In this document: positions 8,383-20,597 of the stretch, piece by piece
Layout: every line of letters starts with the position of its first letter
How positions within the stretch are numbered: position 1 is the first letter of the stretch
NCBI GenBank assembly: GCA_034408725.1
Contig: JAWXCN010000144.1
Coordinates: 1 to 39,072 of the forward strand
Source of the DNA: Candidatus Hydrogenedentota bacterium
GTDB lineage: Bacteria; Hydrogenedentota; Hydrogenedentia; Hydrogenedentales; SLHB01
Direction: 5' to 3'
DNA length: 39,072 bases
Notes under the pieces: model-generated
What the model saw: only the letters and a program-made list of their open reading frames with translations
Databases searched by the model: none
Told to the model about the DNA's origin: nothing
Position numbers and translations under genes: made by a program

Positions 8383-8484
8383 CCGCTCTCTACTGCCTGA
8401 TGTGTTATCTTGTTTCGCCGCAATCCTTCACGCCGTCCGTGTTTGTCCGTGACCGTCCGTGTTCGTCCACAAGGAGAAGTCATT

Positions 8485-10524
8485 CTGAACACACGCCATT
8501 TGCGCGCCCCCGGCCTGCAACCCGTCGCGATCTTTTTGGTCGCGCTATCGCTTTCCATCGGCTGGGGCATTCGCGGAAACTTCGGACACAACGAAGGCGC
8601 GATGATCCCCGGGGCGTTGGCGGGTATCGCGGCGTGCCTTGTATCGGGCCGGGAAGACTGGTGGCGGCGCGTTGCGTACTTCGGAATGTTCGGCGCAATC
8701 GGCTGGTGGTTCGGCGGCTCGATCTCGTACATGCAGGTAGTTTCGTACACGCACAGCGGGCACGCGCCATCGCAACTCTACGGTTTCGCGGCCTTGTGGT
8801 TAGTTGGTTTTCTGTGGGCGGGATTTGGCGGAGCATTCACGGCGATGCCCGCCGTTGCGGATCGAAAGTGGCTCACCGATCTGTTCATTCCGATTACCAT
8901 CATTTTGGGGTTGTGGACAATTTGGGTGTACTCCGAAGTGCCCGCGATCACTGCATACCGGGAATACATTTGGCTCGAAGACCCGAAGGCGTTCAACAAA
9001 ACCGGGCACCGGCAGGAAAACCCATTTTACTGGTTCGATACCGATTGGATTCTTGCGGTGCTCGTGCTGATTGGCATGTGCGCCTACGATCTCTGGGACC
9101 GCCGCGGCAAGGCGCTTACGCACCTGCTCATTCCCCCGCTCGCCGCATCGGGCGCGGCACTCGGCTTTCTGGTGCAGACGGTCCTCACCCGGAACGGCTC
9201 GATCAATGACCTAACGTCGCGGCTGGTTGCATATCAGGGCGATCTCACAAGTTTCAATAAAGACGACTTGCTTACAAACTGGCCGCAGTTCCTCTCGGAC
9301 TTTCCGCAGCACGTGGGTTGGGCACTTGGACTCATTGCCGGGCTTGCGGTGTATTTCGCAATTTTTGGAAAATTCCGGTCCGGCACATCGCTGTTTGTAC
9401 ACATGGCCTGCGGCTGGCTCATTGCATTTATCCTTGGCCCGGTATTGCTGACGACGGTGCTGATGGACGTTGGCGGCTTCCGATTGACTCCTCCCCGCAG
9501 TGACGATTGGGCGGGAATGGCCGGCGCGTTTCTGGGTCTGCTCGTGTACACATTGCGTAACAGGTTACACGCCGTTGCATTCGCGTCGGTCGTCAGCGGT
9601 GTGATCGGAGGCATCGGATTCGCCGGCATGGTATGTCTCAAACTTATATTTGTATGGCCGGGCAACCGCGAACGGTTGAACCCCGAACATCTCGATCCAA
9701 GTCCAACCGCCGCCATCGAAGCTGTCTGGGCGCATTGGCAGGTCGCGAACTGGCACAGCGTGCTCGAACAAACATACGGATTCGTGAATGGCATCGGTAT
9801 TGCCATCGCGCTCGGCTTGTTGGCAACGCGCGTGCCGCGCATCAACACAACGGAGCATGTCGCAAAATTTCGCGCGTGGACTTCGGTATACGCAGTGTCT
9901 TTTGTGCTGCTGTTCGTGATGTATCTGAATCTGTATAAGAACGTGCCCCACTGGGTAGGATACAAACTGGCGCCGGCGGTCATGAAGGCGCCATTGTTCG
10001 GGAGCATTGAGTTCGCGGCCGCGACCTGGTTCAATTTAACTTTCGCGATTTTTGGCGTCGCAATGGTGTACCTGATGCTTGCGCATCAAAAGCGTTCGAT
10101 TTCTCTTGTCCCAGCGACCGCGACGGGCAAGGGCCAACTATTCTTTCTGGTGCTGCTTTGGATGATAGTCATCGGAAACTTCGAACGTGCCCTGCCGGGA
10201 TTCAGCGAACAGCGCCTGATCACCGAATGGGTAATCATTGTGAACGCCGTAATTGCTACAGTGATGATCCTAACCTTGCCGCGCGAGGAGGACGCGTGCG
10301 ACATTAGACCAACGACGAAGTTTTTATCGTTGCTCGGGTTCGCCGCTATGGGAGGTCTCGTCGCATCATGCCTCGTCGTAGCCGCGAGCTTTGGAATCGT
10401 GCGCGGCTTGTACGGCGGTGCATTCGCGGGCCACGCTGGATTCGAAGGGAAACCGCAAACCCGGTTCGGCGATACCCCTGAATGGAGCGTGCGGCCAAAC
10501 CTGCGAAAGGGCGAGCATTCGTAG
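8485..10524 (+). CDS. Large polytopic membrane protein of unknown function
   Basis: Many Gly-rich TM helices and the conserved-looking motifs IGWGIRGNFGHNEGAMIPGAL, FGGSISYMQ, NWHSVLEQTYGF. The start is uncertain: AAGGAG at 8471-8476 fits CTG 8485; alternatives are 8410 and TTG 8500. Confidence 0.8.
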   Translation: MNTRHLRAPGLQPVAIFLVALSLSIGWGIRGNFGHNEGAMIPGALAGIAACLVSGREDWWRRVAYFGMFGAIGWWFGGSISYMQVVSYTHSGHAPSQLYGFAALWLVGFLWAGFGGAFTAMPAVADRKWLTDLFIPITIILGLWTIWVYSEVPAITAYREYIWLEDPKAFNKTGHRQENPFYWFDTDWILAVLVLIGMCAYDLWDRRGKALTHLLIPPLAASGAALGFLVQTVLTRNGSINDLTSRLVAYQGDLTSFNKDDLLTNWPQFLSDFPQHVGWALGLIAGLAVYFAIFGKFRSGTSLFVHMACGWLIAFILGPVLLTTVLMDVGGFRLTPPRSDDWAGMAGAFLGLLVYTLRNRLHAVAFASVVSGVIGGIGFAGMVCLKLIFVWPGNRERLNPEHLDPSPTAAIEAVWAHWQVANWHSVLEQTYGFVNGIGIAIALGLLATRVPRINTTEHVAKFRAWTSVYAVSFVLLFVMYLNLYKNVPHWVGYKLAPAVMKAPLFGSIEFAAATWFNLTFAIFGVAMVYLMLAHQKRSISLVPATATGKGQLFFLVLLWMIVIGNFERALPGFSEQRLITEWVIIVNAVIATVMILTLPREEDACDIRPTTKFLSLLGFAAMGGLVASCLVVAASFGIVRGLYGGAFAGHAGFEGKPQTRFGDTPEWSVRPNLRKGEHS

Positions 10525-10569: not shown

Positions 10570-10617
10570 CGTCCGTGAGTGTCTTGGGTTGGTCTCGACA
10601 GAACGGCGGGTGGAAAA

Positions 10618-11853
10618 ATGCGGACAGGGTTCATCGTAGGATTGTTAGGTCTCGCAATGCTCTCGGGATGCGATTCCGGCGGTCCCTCACAACCGGGCAA
10701 CGAAAACGCGCCGTCAGATTCGGGAAACCGAAACGTCATCAAAATTGTTTCCAGCCTGCCGCATACGGGCAGCGCCAACGCGCAAATCACAACCATCGTC
10801 AACGGAATTAAGCTCGCCATCGACGAGGCCGGCGGCAAAGTCGGCGATTTCACAATCGAGTTTGAAGCGTGGGATGACGCATCGCCGGAGCGCGGACAAT
10901 GGGACCCGGCAGTCGAACTTGCGAACGCGCAGAAAGCGGTCGCCGATCCCGACGTCATGGCGTATATCGGCACGTTCAATTCCGGTGCGGCGAAAAATTC
11001 GATGCCCATCCTGAACAAGGCGGGCCTGCTCATGGTGAGTCCCGCGAACACCTGGCCGGGTCTGACCAAGCCGGGCGTGGGCGAAGCGAACGAACCGATG
11101 ATCTACCGGCCATCGGGAAAGATAACCTACTACCGCGTTGTCCCCGCTGACGATATTCAAGGGCTAGTCGCCGCGCAATGGGCGAAAGAACTGGGTTGCA
11201 CACGGGTATACGTGTTGCATGATCGCGAGTTGTACGGCAAAGGCATCGCGACGATGTTCCAGGAATCGAGCGGGCCGCTGGGCCTCGAAATCGTTGGGGT
11301 AGACGGTATCGATCCGAAAGCATCGAATTACCGTTCGCTCGTGACCAAGATTAAACAAACGAATCCCGAACTGGTGTATTTCGGCGGCACCACGCAAACC
11401 AATGCCGGACAGATCGCCAAGGACCTGCGTGCTGGCGGTCTGGACGTGAAGTTCATGGTGCCAGACGGATGCTTCGAAGACGCGTTCATCGAATCGGCTG
11501 GCGCGGCGAACCTGGAGGGCAACACGTTCATCACGTTCGGCGGTTTGCCCGCCGACAAGTTGACCGGCAAGGGCGCTGAGTATTACGAGAACTACAAAAA
11601 GAAATACAACAACGAACCCCAGGCATACTCCGCCTACGGCTATGAAAGCGCGCGCGCGGTGCTCGAAGCAATCCGCATCGCGGGCAAAAAAGATCGCGAT
11701 GCCATCTCGGCGGCCTGCGGCCAGATTAAGGATTTCGACGGTTTGCTGGGCAAGTGGTCGTTTGACGAGAATGGCGACATCACCACAAAAACGCTGAGTG
11801 GAAACACCGTCAAAAACGGTAAGTTCGAGTTTGTGAAAATTCTGGGCCAGTAA
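10618..11853 (+). CDS. livK: Branched-chain amino acid ABC transporter substrate-binding lipoprotein (LivK/LivJ family)
   Basis: Lipobox LSGC after the ATG at 10618. Motifs IGTFNSG, SPANT.P.LT, RVVPADDIQG, YGKG, YGYE. First gene of the operon. Confidence 0.9.
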   Translation: MRTGFIVGLLGLAMLSGCDSGGPSQPGNENAPSDSGNRNVIKIVSSLPHTGSANAQITTIVNGIKLAIDEAGGKVGDFTIEFEAWDDASPERGQWDPAVELANAQKAVADPDVMAYIGTFNSGAAKNSMPILNKAGLLMVSPANTWPGLTKPGVGEANEPMIYRPSGKITYYRVVPADDIQGLVAAQWAKELGCTRVYVLHDRELYGKGIATMFQESSGPLGLEIVGVDGIDPKASNYRSLVTKIKQTNPELVYFGGTTQTNAGQIAKDLRAGGLDVKFMVPDGCFEDAFIESAGAANLEGNTFITFGGLPADKLTGKGAEYYENYKKKYNNEPQAYSAYGYESARAVLEAIRIAGKKDRDAISAACGQIKDFDGLLGKWSFDENGDITTKTLSGNTVKNGKFEFVKILGQ

Positions 11854-11875: not shown

Positions 11876-12838
11876 ATGACCAATACCGAGGTACTTCTTC
11901 AACAACTGATCATCGGCCTGTCAAACGGGATGATCATCGCGCTGATCGCCCTTGGATACACGATGGTGTACGGCATCGTCGAGCTCATTAATTTTGCGCA
12001 CGGCGACCTGTTCATGCTGGGCTCGTTCCTCGCCCTCACCATCGTCGGCATGCTCGGCCTCGACCAGGTGCCTGAACCCGCGCTCATTTCCTGGGGCTTC
12101 GTTCCACTTCTCATCGCGGTTCCACTGTTTTGCGGAATATTGAATTGGGGTGTCGACCGTCTGGCGTATCGGCCATTGCGGAACGCGCCACGGCTTGCGC
12201 CCCTTGTGTCAGCGATAGGCGTGTCATTCGTATTCGTGAACATCGGCCTGTTCTGGGGCGGACTTCGGATGGACGTGTTCAACGATGGCGTCGCCGCGGC
12301 GTCCCCGAAAGATTTCCCGTGGATTGTCGCCAGCGGGAATCTACTCGGCGAAGCGAGTAACATCATTGTCACCTGGAACGAAGTCTTCGTTTTCGGCATT
12401 ACGCTGCCGCTGATGATCGCATTGACGCTGGCGGTAAAATTCACGCGTATCGGCAAGGCCATGCGCGCCGTCGCGCAAAATCCTACCGCGGCGCAATTAA
12501 TGGGAATCGATGTGGACCGAGTAATCGGCGCGACATTTTTGATCGGAGGCGCGCTTGCGGGCGCTGCCAGCGTTGTCTATTCCTCGTACAACCACACGAT
12601 CTATTTTCAGATGGGGTTCCGCGTAGGCATGGATGCATTCACCGCCGCCGTGCTCGGCGGCATTGGCAGTTTACCGGGCGCTCTGCTTGGCGGGCTTGTC
12701 ATCGGGATCATTCGCGCGATGAGCGATCAGTATATCGCCACGGAATGGACGAACGTCGTCGTGTTCGCCATCCTCATTATCGTGCTCACGTTCCGGCCTT
12801 CGGGACTTCTCGGTGCGCCCGCGCGCGAAAAGGTCTAG
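11876..12838 (+). CDS. livH: Branched-chain amino acid ABC transporter permease
   Basis: ALIALGYTMVYGIVELINFAHG, GKAMRAVAQN, AFTAAVLGGIGS, FRPSGLLG. Confidence 0.95.
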   Translation: MTNTEVLLQQLIIGLSNGMIIALIALGYTMVYGIVELINFAHGDLFMLGSFLALTIVGMLGLDQVPEPALISWGFVPLLIAVPLFCGILNWGVDRLAYRPLRNAPRLAPLVSAIGVSFVFVNIGLFWGGLRMDVFNDGVAAASPKDFPWIVASGNLLGEASNIIVTWNEVFVFGITLPLMIALTLAVKFTRIGKAMRAVAQNPTAAQLMGIDVDRVIGATFLIGGALAGAASVVYSSYNHTIYFQMGFRVGMDAFTAAVLGGIGSLPGALLGGLVIGIIRAMSDQYIATEWTNVVVFAILIIVLTFRPSGLLGAPAREKV

Positions 12839-12844
12839 CCCGCG

Positions 12845-13927
12845 ATGCTCGACGTCATTCGGCGCGTTCTTGTGCTGCGGGCCGGTTGGTTTCTGCTGGC
12901 TATTGCTTTGGTGCTCCCGTTGGTCGATGGATTTCTGCCGCGCGAATACCAATTCGCGGGATTGATGCGTCCGATCTTCATTCTGGCGATTCTCGGACTG
13001 GGATTGAACGTCGTGACGGGGTACACCGGCCTGCTGAACCTGGGTCTCGCCGCGTTTATGGCCATCGGCGCATACAGCTATGGCATTCTCACCTGCGACA
13101 TTTATCCCTTTCAGCTTGGGTTCTGGACCGCGCTCACATTAACCATCGGCATAGGCGCGCTCGCCGGCATCGTGCTCGGCTTGCCCACCATTCGGCTGCG
13201 CGGAGATTATCTTGCGATTGTGACACTGGGCTTCGGCGAGATGATGCAGGACTCGTTGAAGAATCTCGAAAGCATCACGCAAGGAACCCAGGGCATTAAC
13301 CCGCTTCCCTCCCCCACACTGTTCGGCTACCAATTCTCGACTGAGATCTGGGTTCCCTGGTATTACCTCTTGCTCGCCCTGCTCGCGGCCGTCGTATTGT
13401 TCTCGCGCAATCTCGAACATTCGCGCGTGGGCCGCTCGTGGATCGCGATCCGCGAAGACGAAATCGCCGCGACCTGCATGGGCGTGAATCCTGTAAAAGT
13501 AAAGCTGCTCGCGTTTTCCGTCGGCGCTGCGCTTGCCGCTATGTCCGGTGCGCTGTGGGCCTCCTATCTCGGCTCAACCGGCGAACCCAGCAACTACGAC
13601 TTTCAGATTTCGATCATCGCGCTTTGCATGGTCATTATCGGCGGCATGGGCAATATCAGCGGCGTGTTGCTTGGCGCCGTCGTGATGATCGGCTTCAACT
13701 CGATCATACTCGTAAAGCTCACAACGATACTCGCGCAGAAGGGTCTCATCGACACGCAAAATGTGCTGACCGTGCCAAGCAATTGGAAGTATATGATCTT
13801 CGGGTTCGCGCTCATTCTCACAATGCGCTTCAAGCCAGAAGGCCTGTTGCCGTCGCGCCAGGTGCAGGCGGAACTTCATGAAATGCAGGAAGACGCGCGC
13901 GCGCGCAAAAAGAATTGCGCCAAATGA
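12845..13927 (+). CDS. livM: Branched-chain amino acid ABC transporter permease
   Basis: GLNVVTGYTGLLNLG, RLRGDYLAIVTLGFGE, GRSWIAIREDE, KPEGL. Confidence 0.95.
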   Translation: MLDVIRRVLVLRAGWFLLAIALVLPLVDGFLPREYQFAGLMRPIFILAILGLGLNVVTGYTGLLNLGLAAFMAIGAYSYGILTCDIYPFQLGFWTALTLTIGIGALAGIVLGLPTIRLRGDYLAIVTLGFGEMMQDSLKNLESITQGTQGINPLPSPTLFGYQFSTEIWVPWYYLLLALLAAVVLFSRNLEHSRVGRSWIAIREDEIAATCMGVNPVKVKLLAFSVGAALAAMSGALWASYLGSTGEPSNYDFQISIIALCMVIIGGMGNISGVLLGAVVMIGFNSIILVKLTTILAQKGLIDTQNVLTVPSNWKYMIFGFALILTMRFKPEGLLPSRQVQAELHEMQEDARARKKNCAK

Positions 13928-14952
13928 GCATCCTCCACGTTCAAAATCTAACGCTGCGCTTCGGCGGTCTGACCGCGGTGAACAAAGTCAACTTTGAAGT
14001 CGAGCGTGGCCAGATTTTTTCGGTGATTGGCCCCAACGGCGCGGGTAAGACGACGGTGTTTAACGCGATCACCGGCATCTACGAACCAACCGAGGGCGCG
14101 GTGTTGATCAATGGTCGGCCCGGTATGCGGCCCGTTACGGCGCCAACCATCATCGGAATCCTTGCTATTGGCTTGTTAACGGCAATCGGTTTCACGATAG
14201 CCGTCAACGCCGAAACTCTATGGGACGCGTCAATCACCGCGAACTATATTTATCAACAGTCCTTCCCGTGGGGAAAGGCGGCGGGTGACGCCTTGGCATT
14301 TCTTCGAGCGCTTCCGCGGAACTGGAGCGTGCTCCCCGCGATAGGGGGATTGTTCGTCGGCTTGGCCGGGGCCACCTCGGTGTGGCGCCGCGCGCGGCGC
14401 ACGCCGGACGTTGTCGCGCGCCAAGGAGTCGGGCGCACGTTTCAGAATCCGCGTCTGTTTCATCAGATGACCGTGATGGAAAATGTGCTTGTGGGCATGG
14501 ACACGAAGCTGCGCTCGCGATTTTGGCACGCCGCAAGCCGCCTGGGATTTCGCAAGGAGCACAACAAGGCCGTCGAAAAGGCCATGGCGCTCCTTGAATT
14601 CGTCGAACTGGATGATGACGCAAGCGCCGCGGCATCATGCTTGTCCTATGGCCACCAGAGGCGGCTCGAGATTGCGCGCGCGTTGGCGAGCGAACCGGCG
14701 TTGCTATTGCTCGACGAGCCCGCCGCGGGCATGAACCCGGCCGAGTCCGTCGAGTTGATGGAATTGATTCGCAAGATTCGCGATCGCGGTGTCGCGGTTG
14801 TATTGATTGAACATCATATGAACCTCGTCATGGGTGTTTCCGACCGTATCGCCGTGCTCGATTACGGAAACAAGATCGCCGAAGGCACGCCCGACGAAAT
14901 CCAGGCCAACCCGGAAGTGCGCAAGGCTTATCTCGGAACGGAAGACGTCTGA
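13924..14952 (+). CDS. livG: Branched-chain amino acid ABC ATPase with an internal two-TM insertion
   Basis: Walker [11 protein letters not shown]-loop RTFQN, signature [15 protein letters not shown], Walker [11 protein letters not shown]-loop IEH, C-terminal AYLG. ATGA overlap with the livM stop. Confidence 0.92.
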
Positions 14953-15674
14953 TGGCTTCACCGTTATTGTCGATAAAAGGTTTGTTCGCGGGCTACGGTC
15001 CAATCGAAGCGCTGAAAGGTGTCTCGCTCGACGTGAACCCCAGCGAAATCGTGACGCTCATTGGCGCGAACGGCGCGGGCAAATCATCCACGCTCATGTG
15101 CATTTCCGGCATCCAGCGTTCGCGCAAAGGCAGCATTCATTTCGACGGTGAGGATGTCACCAACGAAAAATCACACAGGCTCGTCGCGCGCGGGTTGGTC
15201 CAGGTGCCTGAAGGCCGGAAAATTTTCCCGAAACTGACCGTACTCGAGAACCTCGAACTGGGTGCGTACCTTCGGCGTGATCCAAACGGTGTCAAAGCCG
15301 ACATGGACAAGGTCTATGCCCTGTTTCCCATCCTGGGCGAACGCCGCAAACAATACGGCGGAACGCTTTCAGGCGGCGAGCAACAAATGCTCGCCATCGG
15401 CCGGGCGATTATGAGCAAACCAAAACTCCTGCTCATGGACGAGCCCTCGATGGGCGTCGCGCCGATCCTCACGGCTAAAATTTTCGAGACCATTCGCGAA
15501 CTCAACCGCGAAGGCATGACGATCCTCCTTGTAGAACAGAACGCTCACCTCGCCCTCAAGATCGCCCACCGTGGGTACGTCATCGAAACCGGCGAAATCG
15601 TGCTGGAAGACAAGGCCGCCGCGCTCCTCACCGATCCCCGGGTGAAGGAAGCCTACCTCGGCGATGAGGATTAG
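14952..15674 (+). CDS. livF: Branched-chain amino acid ABC ATPase
   Basis: GANGAGKS, VPEGRKIF, LSGGEQQMLAIGRA, DEPSMG, VEQN. TGATG overlap with livG. Confidence 0.95.
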   Translation: MASPLLSIKGLFAGYGPIEALKGVSLDVNPSEIVTLIGANGAGKSSTLMCISGIQRSRKGSIHFDGEDVTNEKSHRLVARGLVQVPEGRKIFPKLTVLENLELGAYLRRDPNGVKADMDKVYALFPILGERRKQYGGTLSGGEQQMLAIGRAIMSKPKLLLMDEPSMGVAPILTAKIFETIRELNREGMTILLVEQNAHLALKIAHRGYVIETGEIVLEDKAAALLTDPRVKEAYLGDED

Positions 15675-15817
15675 GACGCGTCATTCTCCATTCCCCTCAA
15701 TGGCGGAATTCAGGACAGCGTAAAAGAGATAGGCAGGTTCCGGTTGGAATACTATGCCCGACGACGGTTGTTGTTTAAGCGATTCATTCATTTCACCAAG
15801 TCTTGAGGTGTGACTCC

Positions 15818-16492
15818 ATGCAGCTTGGAATCGCTGCGGATGCCCATTCTGCCCGGCCTATTCAATCAATGGGTCCAACGCCAGAGCACTCCGACGCAAC
15901 CCTTGTGCTGGTTCATGGTCGAGGGGCAACGGCCGAGAATATCCTGTCGCTGTACGAGGAATTTGGATTGCCAACACTGGCCGCACTTGCTCCACAGGCG
16001 GCTGACTTTACATGGTATCCCCAATCCTTCCTCGCGCCGCTTGAGTTGAATCAACCTTTTCTCGACTCAGCGCTGAACCGGCTGGAGTCAATCGTTGCCG
16101 GCCTGATCGCCCGCGCAATTCCGGGCAGCCGGATCGCGCTTCTCGGATTTTCGCAAGGCGCATGCCTCACCTTGGAGTTTGCCGCCCGGCATCCCCGGCA
16201 CTATGGCGCGATCATTGGATTGACCGGAGGGCTCATCGGTCCGCCAGGCACACCGCGCGATTACGCGGGATCGTTGAAAAGAACACCAGTGTTTTTGGGA
16301 ACCAGCGACATTGATCCTCATGTTCCCCTCTCGCGCGTGCAGGAAACCGAAACGATTCTTGCGCGTATGGGAGCGGAGGTGGAGTTGCGCGTGTATCCGG
16401 GAATGGAGCACACCATTAACGAGGACGAGATGGACGCCTGCCGCGCAATACTGCAGACGCTCGTCTCCCAGGAGCGTGAAGCGCGTCCATGA
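15818..16492 (+). CDS. Phospholipase/carboxylesterase alpha/beta hydrolase, MhqD-like
   Basis: HGRG oxyanion motif, GFSQG nucleophile elbow, DPHVP, GMEH. GAGGTG RBS at 15805-15810. Confidence 0.88.
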   Translation: MQLGIAADAHSARPIQSMGPTPEHSDATLVLVHGRGATAENILSLYEEFGLPTLAALAPQAADFTWYPQSFLAPLELNQPFLDSALNRLESIVAGLIARAIPGSRIALLGFSQGACLTLEFAARHPRHYGAIIGLTGGLIGPPGTPRDYAGSLKRTPVFLGTSDIDPHVPLSRVQETETILARMGAEVELRVYPGMEHTINEDEMDACRAILQTLVSQEREARP

Positions 16493-16839
16493 AGATTACG
16501 CGCGTCTACGCCGACGAATTGGGCGAGAGTCATTTCGACGATGCCGAAATCAAATTGGAAGACGCAGGGACGATTGGCAGACTTTCCAAGCCAATTCCCG
16601 CGACAGCAGTCATCTTCCGGGAGAATGAACCCGGCTACGATTACGACTGGCATGTCGCGCCCCGGCGGCAATTTATCGTGCTGCTGGACGGAACCATCGA
16701 AATAGAGGCGTCCGACGGCGCGCGGCGAATATTTCGTGGCGGCGAGATTTTGCTGATGGAAGATGTCACCGGACGAGGCCATCGCACACGAAACGTCGAG
16801 CAGCGCGAGCGACGTTCCCTGTTCATTGCCATCGATTGA
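16489..16839 (+). CDS. Cupin-domain protein
   Basis: WHVAPRRQFIVLLDG and LMEDVTGRGHRT cupin motifs. ATGA overlap with the upstream gene. Confidence 0.8.
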   Translation: MKITRVYADELGESHFDDAEIKLEDAGTIGRLSKPIPATAVIFRENEPGYDYDWHVAPRRQFIVLLDGTIEIEASDGARRIFRGGEILLMEDVTGRGHRTRNVEQRERRSLFIAID

Positions 16840-16860
16840 CAAGCGAAATACGGAGCGCTC

Positions 16861-17811
16861 ATGAACGCAACGCTTTCAGGTATCCATCACGTCACCGCGA
16901 TCACCTCGGACGTGCAACAGAACATCGATTTCTACTGTGGCGTTCTCGGGCTGCGACTGGTCAAGCTCACAGTCAACTTCGATGACCCGAGCAGCTACCA
17001 CCTCTACTACGGCGATGAACTGGGACGTCCTGGAACTGTCATGACGTTTTTCGCGTGGGCCGGTGCGCGCCGCGGCGCCATTGGTCCCCCGCAGGTAACG
17101 ACTACGGCATTCGCAGTGCCTGTCGATGCAATCAATTATTGGTCATCGCGTTTGAAGCAATTCGGCGTTAGTAACGACGCACCGATAGAGCGCTTTTCCG
17201 AACCCGTTCTCCACATCACCGATCCGGATGGCTTGGGACTCGATATAGTTGGCGTCGAGAAACCAGGCGGACAACCGTGGACGGCGGGACCTGTACCGGT
17301 CGAACATGCGATTCAAGGTTTCCATGGCGTCACCATCTCCGAGGAAGGCTACGAAAGCACGGCGAATGTCCTAACAAAGTTAATGAACTTCACCGCGGAC
17401 GGCAACGATGGAAACCGCTTTCGTTACCGCGCCCAAGGCGATGGTTTCGCGGAGATTGTCGATTTTCTTTGCGTGCCGGACGGACGCGGAGGCGGCATGG
17501 GCGCCGGCGTAGTTCATCACGTGGCGTTTCGAACACCGGACCGGCCACAACAGGATGCGTGGCACAGTAACATCGTCCAGGCCGGACTAAACGTATCGCC
17601 AGTGATGGATCGAAACTATTTTCAATCGATCTACTTCCGCGAGCCAGGCGGTGTGTTGTTCGAGATCGCCACTGACGGTCCAGGATTTACCACTGACGAA
17701 CCTGCCGAACAACTCGGCGCAAAACTCATGCTGCCGAAAACACTCGAGCAACATAGAGCCAAAATCGAGAGCATTTTGCCAGCGGTACGGTTGCCCCTCA
17801 GTGAAAAATAA
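16861..17811 (+). CDS. Ring-cleaving dioxygenase, VOC family (MhqA/MhqE/MhqO/PcpA-like)
   Basis: GIHHVTAI, VKLTVNFDDP..YHLYYGD, VHHVAF, DRNYFQSIYFREPGGVLFEIATDGPGF. Confidence 0.92.
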   Translation: MNATLSGIHHVTAITSDVQQNIDFYCGVLGLRLVKLTVNFDDPSSYHLYYGDELGRPGTVMTFFAWAGARRGAIGPPQVTTTAFAVPVDAINYWSSRLKQFGVSNDAPIERFSEPVLHITDPDGLGLDIVGVEKPGGQPWTAGPVPVEHAIQGFHGVTISEEGYESTANVLTKLMNFTADGNDGNRFRYRAQGDGFAEIVDFLCVPDGRGGGMGAGVVHHVAFRTPDRPQQDAWHSNIVQAGLNVSPVMDRNYFQSIYFREPGGVLFEIATDGPGFTTDEPAEQLGAKLMLPKTLEQHRAKIESILPAVRLPLSEK

Positions 17812-17853
17812 AACGACCTTTCGTCGAAATAAGTAAACCCAAGGAGAAATGTT

Positions 17854-18657
17854 ATGAGGTCGCAGATCACAGATCGCATTATCGCTGGAACGGTAGTCGC
17901 ATTAGCTATTCTCATCGGTTTGATTTTTATTACCTACGACGGGCCTGCACGAGCGCAACAGCAAGACTCGGCATCCACCGCCGAGATACCAGGGCTATCA
18001 CGGCAACCCAGTGCTGCTGCCCGCGAAGTCCTTTTCGACGCGAATGACACGGCAGTGTTACTGCTCGATCATCAGACCGGCCTGTTCCAAACTGTGAAGG
18101 ATGTCCCGCTCCGCGATCTGCGGGTGAACACTGTGGTACTCGCCAAGATAGCCGAACTTGCCAAAGCGCCGATCATCTACACTGCATCGGAACCCAACGG
18201 CAGCAACGGACCAATTATGTCGGAGCTGGCCGCAGCCGCGCCGAACGCGCAGTACGTCGCGCGCAAAGGCGAGGTCAGCGCATGGGACAACGCCGACGTC
18301 GTCAAAGCCGTTGAAGCGACGGGCAAAAAAACACTGGTCATGGCAGGCGTATGGACGAGCGTCTGCGTCGCATTCCCTGCGCTCCAGGCCAAGGCGGACG
18401 GTTATAAGGTATACGCCGTCATGGACGCCTCAGGCGATATGAGCGAGATGGCTTCTCAAACCACCCTCGCCCGTATGACGCAGGCCGGCATTATTCCGGT
18501 GACGACTAATGTTGTGCTCTGTGAGTTTCAGCGGACGTGGAACCGTCCCGATGCAGCCCAGTGGGGCGAACTCTATGGAGAACTTGTGCCGCACTACCGC
18601 GCCGTCGCGGAGAGTTATAACAAAGCACAGGAAGTCGCGAAGAAGTCCCAGAAGTGA
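17854..18657 (+). CDS. YcaC-like isochorismatase-family cysteine hydrolase with an N-terminal signal or TM segment
   Basis: LLDHQTGL, RKGEVSAWDN, AGVWTSVCVAFPAL, VMDASG, QRTW. AAGGAG RBS. Hydrophobic N-terminus ending in ARA-Q. Confidence 0.88.
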   Translation: MRSQITDRIIAGTVVALAILIGLIFITYDGPARAQQQDSASTAEIPGLSRQPSAAAREVLFDANDTAVLLLDHQTGLFQTVKDVPLRDLRVNTVVLAKIAELAKAPIIYTASEPNGSNGPIMSELAAAAPNAQYVARKGEVSAWDNADVVKAVEATGKKTLVMAGVWTSVCVAFPALQAKADGYKVYAVMDASGDMSEMASQTTLARMTQAGIIPVTTNVVLCEFQRTWNRPDAAQWGELYGELVPHYRAVAESYNKAQEVAKKSQK

Positions 18658-18776
18658 ACATCACGGATTACTGTAAACCAAAGTGACCTCGCGGAATAAC
18701 ACTTATTGACGGAGCAAGTCGCCGGTGCGGCCATTGTGGCCGGCGCCGGTGGCTTGTACTCGAATTCGGGAGAGCA

Positions 18777-20597
18777 ATGATGCGTCCATCGCGGTTTAAT
18801 ACAGGCTCGGCCGTTTTCCTCCTCATCGCTGCCGTACTGCAATCTGCGACCATGGCGGTCGATGCCGAGGAGCCCGCCGACCTTATCGTCACCAACGCCA
18901 AGGTTCACACGGTGGATGCAGCGCATCCGCAAGCAACGGCATTTGCAGTGAAGGATGGAAAGTTCACCGCCGTGAGCGATGACGAAGAGATGGCAGCCCT
19001 TCGCGGCGAGAAAACGCGAATGATCGACGCCGGCGGTCTCACAATCATCCCGGGCCTAAACGACTCGCATGCGCACGCCGTGCGTGGCGGACGATTCTAC
19101 AATTTGGAGTTACGCTGGGACGGCGTTGATTCGCTGGAGCGCGGGTTGGAAATGATTCGCGAGCAGGCCCAACGAACGCCCGCCGGACAGTGGGTGCGCA
19201 TCATCGGCGGCTGGTCTCCGTTCCAATTCAAAGAGAAACGGATGCCGACAATCAAAGAGTTGAATGATGCCGCGCCAAACACACCTACCTTCGTATTGTT
19301 TCTTTACAGTCAGGGCATGATTAATCGAGCTGCCGTGCAGGCGCTCGGCCTCACCGAAGAAACGAAGGCCCCTTCGGGAGGACGCTACGAGTTCGTCGAT
19401 GGTGGCGCGATTCTTCATGCCGAGCCGAACCCATTGATCCTCTATCAAATGATTGCCGAGCCGCCGCAACTCTCTCCGGAGGATCAGGTCAATTCCACGC
19501 TTCACTTCTATCGCGAAATGAACCGGCTGGGAATGACCAGCGCGGTGGATGCCGGGGGCGGCGGGCACACATTTCCCAAAGACTATGCGGGCAGTGAAAC
19601 GGTTGCGAAACAAGGCGACATGTCGGTGCGCATAACCTACTATCTCTTCGCGCAAACGCCGGGCAAGGAAGCCGAGGATTTTCTTAAATGGACCACGGAA
19701 AACGAAGTGGGCCAAAACCTTGCCAAAGACCTCGACCACGGTTTTGAACTCGACGGAGCCGGTGAGTTTTTGGCCCATAGCGCTGGTGATTGGGAAAACT
19801 TCATGGCGCCGCGTCCAGACCTCGCCGAACGAAAGGCGGCGGGGATGGAACCGATGGGTGATCTGCATGAGGTGGCGACCATCCTCGTCAAAAAGAAGTG
19901 GCCGCTACGCCAACATGCCACCTATGGCGAAAGCATTCGCGTTATCATGAACGTGTTTGAACAAGTCAAGCAAGAGCAGGGAGCTTTCGCGCCGCGTTGG
20001 GCCATCGACCACGCGGAAACCGTTCGCGACGGGGAACTGCGCCGGATCAAGGCGATGGACGGTGGCATTGCCATCCAGAACCGCATGGCATTTGCCGGCG
20101 AGTATTTCGTTGAACGCTACGGGAAAGAAGCTGTCGCCTACGCGCCACCGATCCGCAAGATGCTTGAAATGGGAATTCCCGTCGGGGCTGGCACTGACGG
20201 CACGCGCGTCAGCAGCTTCAACCCGTGGCCCTCCTTATATTGGCTCGTATCCGGCAAGACTGTCGGCGGGACCCAGCTCTTTGCCGAGAACAACAAACTT
20301 ACGCGCGAAGAAGCGCTGCAGCTTTTCACCGTGGGCAGCGCGTGGTTCAGCCAGGAAGAAAAAGTAAAAGGCCGCATCGCGCCGGGGCTCTACGCGGACT
20401 TCGCCGTGCTGAGCGACGATTACTTCTCTGTCGACGAAGAGCAGATTAAAGACATCCATTCTATGTTGACAGTCGTGGGCGGCAGGGTGGTCTATGCGGA
20501 AGAGCCGTTTGAGGCTTTGGCGCCGCCTGCCCTACCGCCCGTTAGCCCCAAGTGGTCACCCGTGGCGTTTTTCGGAGGTTACCAACATCCGAGTTAG
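18777..20597 (+). CDS. Amidohydrolase_3 family protein (YtcJ/NfdA-like) with signal peptide
   Basis: IPGLNDSHAH, QHATY, DHAE, GAGTDG, KGRIAPGLYADFAVL, LTVVGGRVVY. Signal peptide ending in TMA-V. Confidence 0.88.
   Translation: MMRPSRFNTGSAVFLLIAAVLQSATMAVDAEEPADLIVTNAKVHTVDAAHPQATAFAVKDGKFTAVSDDEEMAALRGEKTRMIDAGGLTIIPGLNDSHAHAVRGGRFYNLELRWDGVDSLERGLEMIREQAQRTPAGQWVRIIGGWSPFQFKEKRMPTIKELNDAAPNTPTFVLFLYSQGMINRAAVQALGLTEETKAPSGGRYEFVDGGAILHAEPNPLILYQMIAEPPQLSPEDQVNSTLHFYREMNRLGMTSAVDAGGGGHTFPKDYAGSETVAKQGDMSVRITYYLFAQTPGKEAEDFLKWTTENEVGQNLAKDLDHGFELDGAGEFLAHSAGDWENFMAPRPDLAERKAAGMEPMGDLHEVATILVKKKWPLRQHATYGESIRVIMNVFEQVKQEQGAFAPRWAIDHAETVRDGELRRIKAMDGGIAIQNRMAFAGEYFVERYGKEAVAYAPPIRKMLEMGIPVGAGTDGTRVSSFNPWPSLYWLVSGKTVGGTQLFAENNKLTREEALQLFTVGSAWFSQEEKVKGRIAPGLYADFAVLSDDYFSVDEEQIKDIHSMLTVVGGRVVYAEEPFEALAPPALPPVSPKWSPVAFFGGYQHPS

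Follow-up and report, generated by a model that had tools for sequence, protein, structure and literature searches.

The ATPase domains of ATP-binding cassette (ABC) transporters are textbook examples of soluble or peripheral modules, and the membrane tethers known to us in such ATPases are end-to-end fusions. Here, we describe livG, a gene for a LivG-type ABC ATPase found in a 39,072-nucleotide stretch of DNA (hereafter the window) from a Candidatus Hydrogenedentota bacterium (assembly GCA_034408725.1, contig JAWXCN010000144.1, positions 1 to 39,072). Its product has the ATPase core, the BCA_ABC_TP_C domain and the livKHMGF operon in common with canonical LivG proteins, represented by MJ1267 (1G6H, 1GAJ) and E. 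coli LivG. Counted from the first Gly of Walker A to the R-T-F-Q motif, the spacing between Walker A and the Q-loop is 46 residues in canonical LivG, where it holds no hydrophobic segment, whereas it reaches 135 residues and includes two such segments in the window's LivG. Judged from sequence, this insert probably forms a membrane hairpin with N-in/C-in topology, through which LivG would be an integral subunit next to LivH and LivM, with a short aromatic loop at the periplasmic interface. Actual insertion into the membrane, packing against LivH and LivM, and coupling to catalysis are steps that we infer.

Several described systems offer points of comparison. Fusions of LivM with LivG, or with LivG and LivF, occur among the best 150 matches of a profile search presented below, and they likewise tie the ATPase covalently to membrane helices. 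In these fusions, however, the partners are joined end to end by linkers of 30-80 residues and the ATPase fold is uninterrupted, whereas the helices of the window's LivG lie inside the fold. In LptB2FGC, ATPase activity is modulated by LptC, whose single transmembrane (TM) helix inserts between LptF and LptG. The likeness consists in accessory TM helices added to an ABC core with a possible regulatory effect, and LptB is among the closest solved ATPases; the accessory helix is nevertheless carried by a separate protein (LptC) and not, as here, by the ATPase itself. Type VII ABC systems (MacB, LolCDE, FtsEX) are organized as TM1, a periplasmic domain and TM2, with long stalk helices, and MacB has its ATPase ahead of four TM helices in an end-to-end arrangement. 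The 5nik_J chain of MacB could be aligned to the LivG model over the ATPase part only (218 residues, chain positions 2-226). No Pfam FtsX or MacB family was detected in the window's LivG or in 18 long-insert relatives, and no sequence relation was found for the hairpin.

The regulatory insertion of CFTR NBD1 is described in two articles (PMC3776845, PMC7350234) as an insertion inside an ABC ATPase domain that modulates function. Like the LivG hairpin, it lies within the ATPase domain, a likeness that we regard as an analogy and not as kinship. The CFTR insertion comprises about 30 residues, is disordered, cytoplasmic and related to phosphorylation, and occupies a different place in the fold. 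Full-text literature searches, whose scope lay outside subscription journals and TCDB, returned no description of TM segments in a LivG-type ATPase, and the available portions of a Saier-laboratory survey of ABC uptake systems (PMC3654945) describe none. An original prediction made from the letters of this DNA stated that no characterised example was known, and this agrees with the literature accessible to these searches and with the 50 Foldseek and 50 VIA matches listed for the LivG model.

A long insert between Walker A and the Q-loop

The elements of LivG that define the insert and its borders are listed below (all on the + strand, coordinates of the window).

14029-14052, +: Walker A GPNGAGKT, residues 36-43; read directly, invariant columns in the alignment
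14116-14403, +: insert absent from canonical nucleotide-binding domains, residues 65-160; delimited by split profile matches and the Walker A-Q-loop spacing
14149-14205, +: predicted TM1, in to out, residues 76-94; Kyte-Doolittle 2.54; AlphaFold2 helix 73-94
14206-14325, +: predicted periplasmic or interfacial loop, residues 95-134; conserved W100, Y108, F114 and W116; AlphaFold2 helices 96-103 and 116-129
14326-14382, +: predicted TM2, out to in, Gly-rich, residues 135-153; Kyte-Doolittle 1.64; AlphaFold2 helix 132-157
14386-14400, +: RRARR, positive cytoplasmic flank (predicted), residues 155-159; K/R at column 156 in 68% and at column 158 in 75% of 40 sequences
14434-14445, +: Q-loop motif RTFQ, residues 171-174; R171, T172 and Q174 invariant

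Profile searches split the protein at this insert. Pfam ABC_tran and NCBIfam LivG each match LivG in two stretches, the best NCBIfam LivG stretch pairing residues 160-339 with profile positions 73-254 of 255. Similarly, phmmer searches against the PDB paired LivG 1-64 with LptB 1-64, LivG 166-339 with LptB 77-237, and LivG 160-338 with residues 75-256 of MJ1267 (1g6h). A comparison set of 80 LivG loci from GTDB species genomes was collected by a contig scan with full-length alignment in which generic ATPase motifs served as patterns; this set is dominated by canonical LivG and gives no frequency. The spacing was 46 residues in 63 of these 80 loci, against 135 here; ten other loci were at 35, 45, 50-58 or 76, four at 70 and one (L026) at 222, while three were unreadable. 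L026 is the only one of the 80 listed loci with a long insert. Since the spacing is 135 and not the canonical 46, the insert amounts to about 89 residues, and the split profile matches agree with the some 90 extra in-frame residues that had been proposed at this place from the sequence.

The insertion site also carries hydrophilic inserts in other LivG proteins. These measure 24 residues in L027, L035, L064 and L073 (spacing 70), which have an H/CP..(G/S)(K/R)MK motif in common, and 30 residues in L028 (spacing 76). The metagenome-assembled genomes (MAGs) encoding these hydrophilic-insert LivG are labelled Spirochaetales, Oscillospiraceae, Lawsonibacter, Limnocylindria and Magnetococcales.

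Outside the insert, the protein has the complete set of ABC motifs, including GPNGAGKT (36-43), Q174, the signature LSYGHQ (240-245), Walker B with the catalytic Glu (LLLLDE, 260-265) and the H-loop residue H297. Walker A, Q174, D264/E265 and H297 form invariant columns in an alignment of 46 sequences, which bears out the earlier statement that all catalytic motifs are intact. Family searches returned PF00005 (ABC_tran) with an E-value of 1.4e-31 and PF12399 (BCA_ABC_TP_C) at residues 317-341 with 52.7 bits, for a cut-off of 25.5. The best NCBIfam match was LivG (E. coli LivG, NF008449), with 289.1 bits in two stretches. As the match is split by the insert and its score is below the equivalog cut-off of 362, the protein is filed as LivG-like and does not count as an E. 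coli LivG equivalog.

Structural comparisons of the LivG model point to the same family. VIA-align gave a Z score of 31.5 to 1ji0_A (235 residues, root-mean-square deviation 2.5) and of 29.0 to 1g9x_A, the representative chain of MJ1267 (233 residues, root-mean-square deviation 2.3), and Foldseek matched LptB with an E-value of 1.7e-20. Among the 50 matches listed by Foldseek and the 50 listed by exhaustive VIA, only a core of about 235 residues aligns to solved chains, some 100 residues of the insert remaining unaligned, and no chain covers the insert when the full model is the query. With the full protein as query, the window's genome (92% complete) yielded livG and no other LivG-type match at E <= 1e-40, and the hairpin LivG should therefore be the working ATPase. 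Taken with its motifs, livG most likely encodes a functional LivG-type ABC ATPase.

Sequence signatures of a membrane hairpin

The insert contains two charge-free hydrophobic segments of 19 residues each, with Arg-rich flanks and a 40-residue aromatic loop between them. Over 19-residue windows, the Kyte-Doolittle value has maxima of 2.54 at residues 76-94 and of 1.64 at residues 135-153 and 136-154. The TM segments had been proposed at 14146-14205 and 14323-14385, corresponding to residues 75-94 and 134-154, and these borders match the hydrophobicity peaks at 76-94 and 135-153. The end of TM2 lies about 20 residues before Q174.

Family statistics were drawn from 39-40 insert-bearing sequences with 37-78% identity to the window's LivG. 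Across 39 sequences, Lys plus Arg account for 0.018 of the residues in TM1 and 0.008 in TM2; the 13-residue flanks have 0.19 and 0.225, against 0.071 for the 40-residue loop. Such Arg-rich flanks around a loop poor in Lys and Arg fit the positive-inside rule with an N-in/C-in orientation. Column statistics for 40 sequences identified the aromatic residues W100, Y108, F114, W116 and W154 as conserved, W100 being present in 36/40 sequences and F114 and W116 each in 35/40. Their arrangement looks like an interfacial aromatic belt.

AlphaFold2, run with 46 sequences, produced a model with a mean predicted local distance difference test (pLDDT) score of 94, and the 10-residue blocks over residues 71-150 were at 95-98. 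The helices predicted in the insert span residues 73-94, 96-103, 116-129 and 132-157, so that the insert is confidently modelled as a helical hairpin. A complex prediction combining LivH, LivM and LivG 58-170 gave values of 0.04 and 0.02 for the interaction prediction score from aligned errors (ipSAE), with a mark of 0.32, an outcome that speaks neither way on whether the hairpin packs against LivH and LivM.

Conservation among the Hydrogenedentota

A query with the insert alone retrieved eight further proteins from a collection of 5.8 billion proteins, two of which are named Hydrogenedentes or Hydrogenedentota by NCBI. Besides the window's own genome, the insert was detected in 8 of 40 related genomes, including 4/4 of the same genus. 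At the level of the phylum, it was present in 14 of 135 genomes (the window's own counted), belonging to 7 of 66 genera. The livK-H-M-G-F order was kept in all seven relatives examined. An assembly artefact had been named as one outcome that would undo the prediction; the insert recurs in 13 other genomes of the phylum, within the same operon in the relatives examined, and is not such an artefact.

Canonical LivG was found in only two of the 40 relatives (L017 in G017 and L018 in G007), with a normal short linker. Both canonical genes lie in a separate livM-livG-livF operon, followed by an open reading frame (ORF) that by eye resembles a phenylacetate-CoA ligase.

A widespread LivG subfamily and its variants

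To look beyond the phylum, 1.84 billion cluster representatives (50% identity) were searched with a profile and the best 150 matches were classified as follows.

65 of the best 150: single-domain proteins, spacing >=118
67 of the best 150: canonical spacing, including LivG-LivF and LivM-LivG-LivF fusions
2 of the best 150: intermediate spacing
12 of the best 150: fragments
4 of the best 150: two-domain proteins, for which the measure gives an artefactually long spacing

Among the 65 long-insert representatives, 56 have at least two hydrophobic segments, eight have one and one has none. About 33 resemble the window's LivG, with a spacing of 118-137, and some 21 have an enlarged segment between the two helices. 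Most long-insert representatives come from clusters labelled Planctomycetota, which is also the commonest phylum in the ESM Atlas clusters neighbouring the window's LivG (344, 451, 417 and 450 residues). A second insert query added proteins from MAGs with the labels Dongiaceae and Candidatus Eisenbacteria, and each of these proteins is named just "ABC transporter ATP-binding protein". The hairpin had first appeared as a singular oddity, a view that is not borne out by at least 65 of the best 150 cluster representatives: on this classification, the window's livG belongs to a widespread LivG subfamily that is uncharacterised, and is typical of its short-loop members.

One form of variation within this subfamily affects the loop. 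The enlarged loops (P0011-P0019, P0022-P0026 and others) comprise 100-275 hydrophilic residues in repeat-like beta-beta-alpha units, and alignment of 20 of these proteins revealed a homologous, hydrophilic, repeat-like loop domain. No Pfam family was assigned to the loop domain in 18 long-insert relatives, the single hit being a sub-threshold EF-hand match in P0016. An enlarged-loop LivG of 431 amino acids (aa) occurs inside a livKHMGF operon of a Gemmataceae MAG (L026:4995-6290). Its AlphaFold2 model (pLDDT 90) displays TM1, two short helices, six strands and one helix, and a 47-residue helix leading into TM2. By analogy only, the expanded-loop relatives resemble type VII systems in their succession of TM1, a folded alpha/beta domain, a 47-residue helix into TM2 and the ATPase.

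Further variants concern the number and type of hydrophobic segments. Ten representatives (P0021, P0029, P0030, P0032, P0035, P0047, P0052, P0055, P0084 and P0102) have a second hydrophobic helix pair after the Q-loop, in the helical subdomain, and these double-hairpin ATPases would have four membrane helices. Hydrophobic inserts of another kind occupy the same site in P0146, P0147, P0150, P0117 and P0126, as tight hairpins lacking the LW...FPW loop, and P0146, P0147 and P0150 are placed apart on the core tree. The site may have gained membrane helices more than once, and on the sequences compared it is evidently an insertion hot spot in LivG. In a FastTree phylogeny of 159 insert-less cores, the hairpin state requires five changes across a tree with many unsupported branches, and a single origin of the main hairpin group is plausible.

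The search also recovered LivM-LivG-LivF triple fusions (P0043, P0044, P0053 and about 20 more), natural proteins of 622-945 aa whose parts are connected by 30-80 residues of low-complexity sequence. Short fusion linkers had been considered as a sign that the beta-subdomain lies at the membrane, an idea that was dropped in view of the length (30-80 residues) and low complexity of these linkers.

The liv operon and its surroundings

The window contains a five-gene operon on the + strand, in the order livK-livH-livM-livG-livF.

10579-11853, +: livK-like substrate-binding protein, 424 aa; Pfam Peripla_BP_6, 1.2e-40
11876-12838, +: livH-like permease, 320 aa; Pfam BPD_transp_2, 2.6e-46; kept in the operons of 7/7 relatives
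12845-13927, +: livM-like permease, 360 aa; Pfam BPD_transp_2, 1.3e-44
13924-14952, +: livG-type ABC ATPase with internal hairpin (predicted), 342 aa, P0001; ABC_tran in two stretches and BCA_ABC_TP_C
14952-15674, +: livF, ordinary soluble-type ATPase, 240 aa; single-stretch ABC_tran and LivF model

The livG ORF is open from 13915 or 13924 to 14952 on the + strand, and the ATG at 13924 yields the 342-aa product. Direct reading of the sequence shows the livM stop and the livG ATG overlapping as ATGA, and the livG stop and the livF ATG overlapping as TGATG, in line with the translational coupling proposed for livG on both sides. LivF had been called normal, and it is: its residues 3-237 pair with positions 3-236 of 237 of the NCBIfam LivF profile, the 240-aa protein being matched from end to end in one uninterrupted stretch. 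The livK product scored 117 bits with the NCBIfam branched-chain amino acid binding-protein subfamily, far under the cut-off of 477. Because LivG (289 against 362 bits) and the binding protein (117 against 477 bits) both fall short of their cut-offs, the ATPase is called LivG-like and no substrate is assigned to the transporter.

At the N-terminus of LivK (window 10579-10700), LSGC precedes the mature part and by eye forms a lipoprotein-like signal; from this motif, the binding protein may be lipid-anchored. Directly upstream of livK is an ORF of 704 aa (8410-10524, + strand) with many hydrophobic stretches, for which no Pfam or NCBIfam match was obtained. It is kept upstream of livK in three relatives of the same genus, with 53-70% identity. 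Downstream of livF, the region 15803-20597 carries hydrolase-type genes, namely Abhydrolase_2, a two-domain glyoxalase/dioxygenase, an isochorismatase-family gene and Amidohydro_3, which may be a clue to the kind of substrate transported.

Proposed topology and alternative explanations

In the topology that we favour, the loop between the beta-strand that follows the Walker A helix and the short helix preceding the Q-loop would be replaced by a membrane-spanning helical hairpin. The N-terminal part of the ATPase domain would be cytoplasmic and TM1 (76-94) would run outward; the 40-residue aromatic loop would be positioned at the periplasmic interface, TM2 (135-153) would run inward, and RRARR together with the rest of the ATPase domain would again be cytoplasmic. 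LivG would thereby be an integral subunit, permanently located beside the LivH and LivM permeases and adding two helices to them. The hairpin would serve as a platform for a periplasmic element, short in the window's LivG and developed into a folded domain of 100-275 residues in relatives; the presence of a hydrophilic domain between the helices of these relatives is consistent with a periplasmic loop. Since only about 20 residues separate TM2 from the Q-loop, movements of the hairpin would likely be mechanically linked to those of the Q-loop, which senses ATP. This proximity, together with the loop domain that relatives carry on the same hairpin, makes it a fair hypothesis that ATP hydrolysis is linked, mechanically or allosterically, to the periplasmic face.

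Several observations weigh against this topology. TM2 is Gly-rich and marginally hydrophobic (Kyte-Doolittle 1.64), and among the 65 long-insert representatives, eight have a single segment at the 1.5 threshold and one has none. Sequence searches found no solved relative of LivM, and hence no frame for the packing of the hairpin. The whole operon is missing from most genomes of the same order and is therefore dispensable for the lineage. The insert also evolves faster than the core, with 39-65% against 67-88% identity in seven relatives; where dS could be computed, dN/dS (the ratio of nonsynonymous to synonymous substitution rates) was 0.14-0.52 in the insert, compared with 0.06-0.29 in the core, values that are indicative only as dS was saturated (mostly >1 or not computable). 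Finally, the membrane topology is here a prediction. The integral-membrane ATPase with an extracytoplasmic loop that was originally proposed thus stands as regards the hairpin signatures, which recur in 39 relatives, whereas its topology is predicted and not demonstrated.

The same features have been weighed under other readings. The loop would stay in the cytoplasm if the two helices served as a monotopic or re-entrant inner-leaflet anchor, or if they were a hydrophobic pair buried on the ATPase dimer or on another protein. The weak hydrophobicity of TM2 (Kyte-Doolittle 1.64), which contains Gly and Pro, would suit such an arrangement, as would the aromatic and amphipathic loop, which is equally at ease at an interface, and the spanning topology is itself predicted only. 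Yet both segments are charge-free over at least 19 residues throughout the family, their AlphaFold2 helices are 22 and 26 residues long, and the density of Lys and Arg is threefold higher in the outer flanks than in the loop. The hydrophilic domain of 100-275 residues found in relatives is also hard to fit into a re-entrant loop, although this is possible if the domain is cytoplasmic. On balance, we consider a non-spanning insert quite improbable. As for a mis-assembly, a frame error or a mobile fragment giving a non-functional protein, no supporting evidence was found. The frame is open with all catalytic motifs present, the gene overlaps are intact on both sides, AlphaFold2 confidence is high, and the insert is found again in 13 further genomes of the phylum and in dozens of clusters at 50% identity. 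Such recurrence within a kept operon leaves an artefact or a decaying gene with a negligible chance, and this explanation was discarded for practical purposes.

A more specific proposal, which takes up the original prediction, gives the hairpin a main role in trans-membrane signalling: the loop would contact docked LivK or sense an external cue, and TM2 would set the Q-loop, directly licensing ATP hydrolysis, which would then no longer depend on the coupling helices of the permeases alone. The end of TM2 some 20 residues ahead of Q174, the strong conservation of the loop aromatics (W100 in 36/40, F114 and W116 in 35/40 sequences) and the enlargement of this very loop in relatives, where it forms a folded domain carried by a long stalk helix, all speak for it. 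A further lead comes from the permeases. In nine hairpin operons, LivH (127-133) and LivM (295-306) have extra segments that are absent from 61-62 canonical operons, eight of the nine being close kin and not independent; the hairpin of LivG, or its loop, may touch the permeases at these segments. However, a 40-residue amphipathic aromatic loop is better suited to the membrane surface than to reaching a docked binding protein, and the loops of the family differ so much in length (40 to about 275 residues) that a single fixed contact is hard to picture. Direct signalling of this kind therefore appears unlikely, if worth keeping in mind.

Implications for ABC importers

If the spanning hairpin is true, an importer would have as its motor subunit an integral membrane protein exposed to the periplasm, which offers a route for trans-membrane control of ATP hydrolysis. 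It would also raise the question of how a split ATPase domain is co-translationally folded and inserted. In its boldest form, which we advance as a speculation with the odds against it, hairpin-LivG would represent a new architectural class of binding-protein-dependent importer, in which the ATPase crosses the membrane and bears an element on the periplasmic side. TM2 would relay conditions at that side, for instance a docked binding protein or an external ligand, straight to the Q-loop, either in place of the coupling helices or in addition to them, and the relatives with an expanded loop or a double hairpin would be elaborate versions of this scheme. The design occurs in many uncultured bacteria, is common in clusters labelled Planctomycetota and present in the Hydrogenedentota, under no other database name than "ABC transporter ATP-binding protein", and any transporter census in which ATPases are counted as soluble would therefore mis-describe hairpin LivG. 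Such an architecture would surprise ABC specialists.

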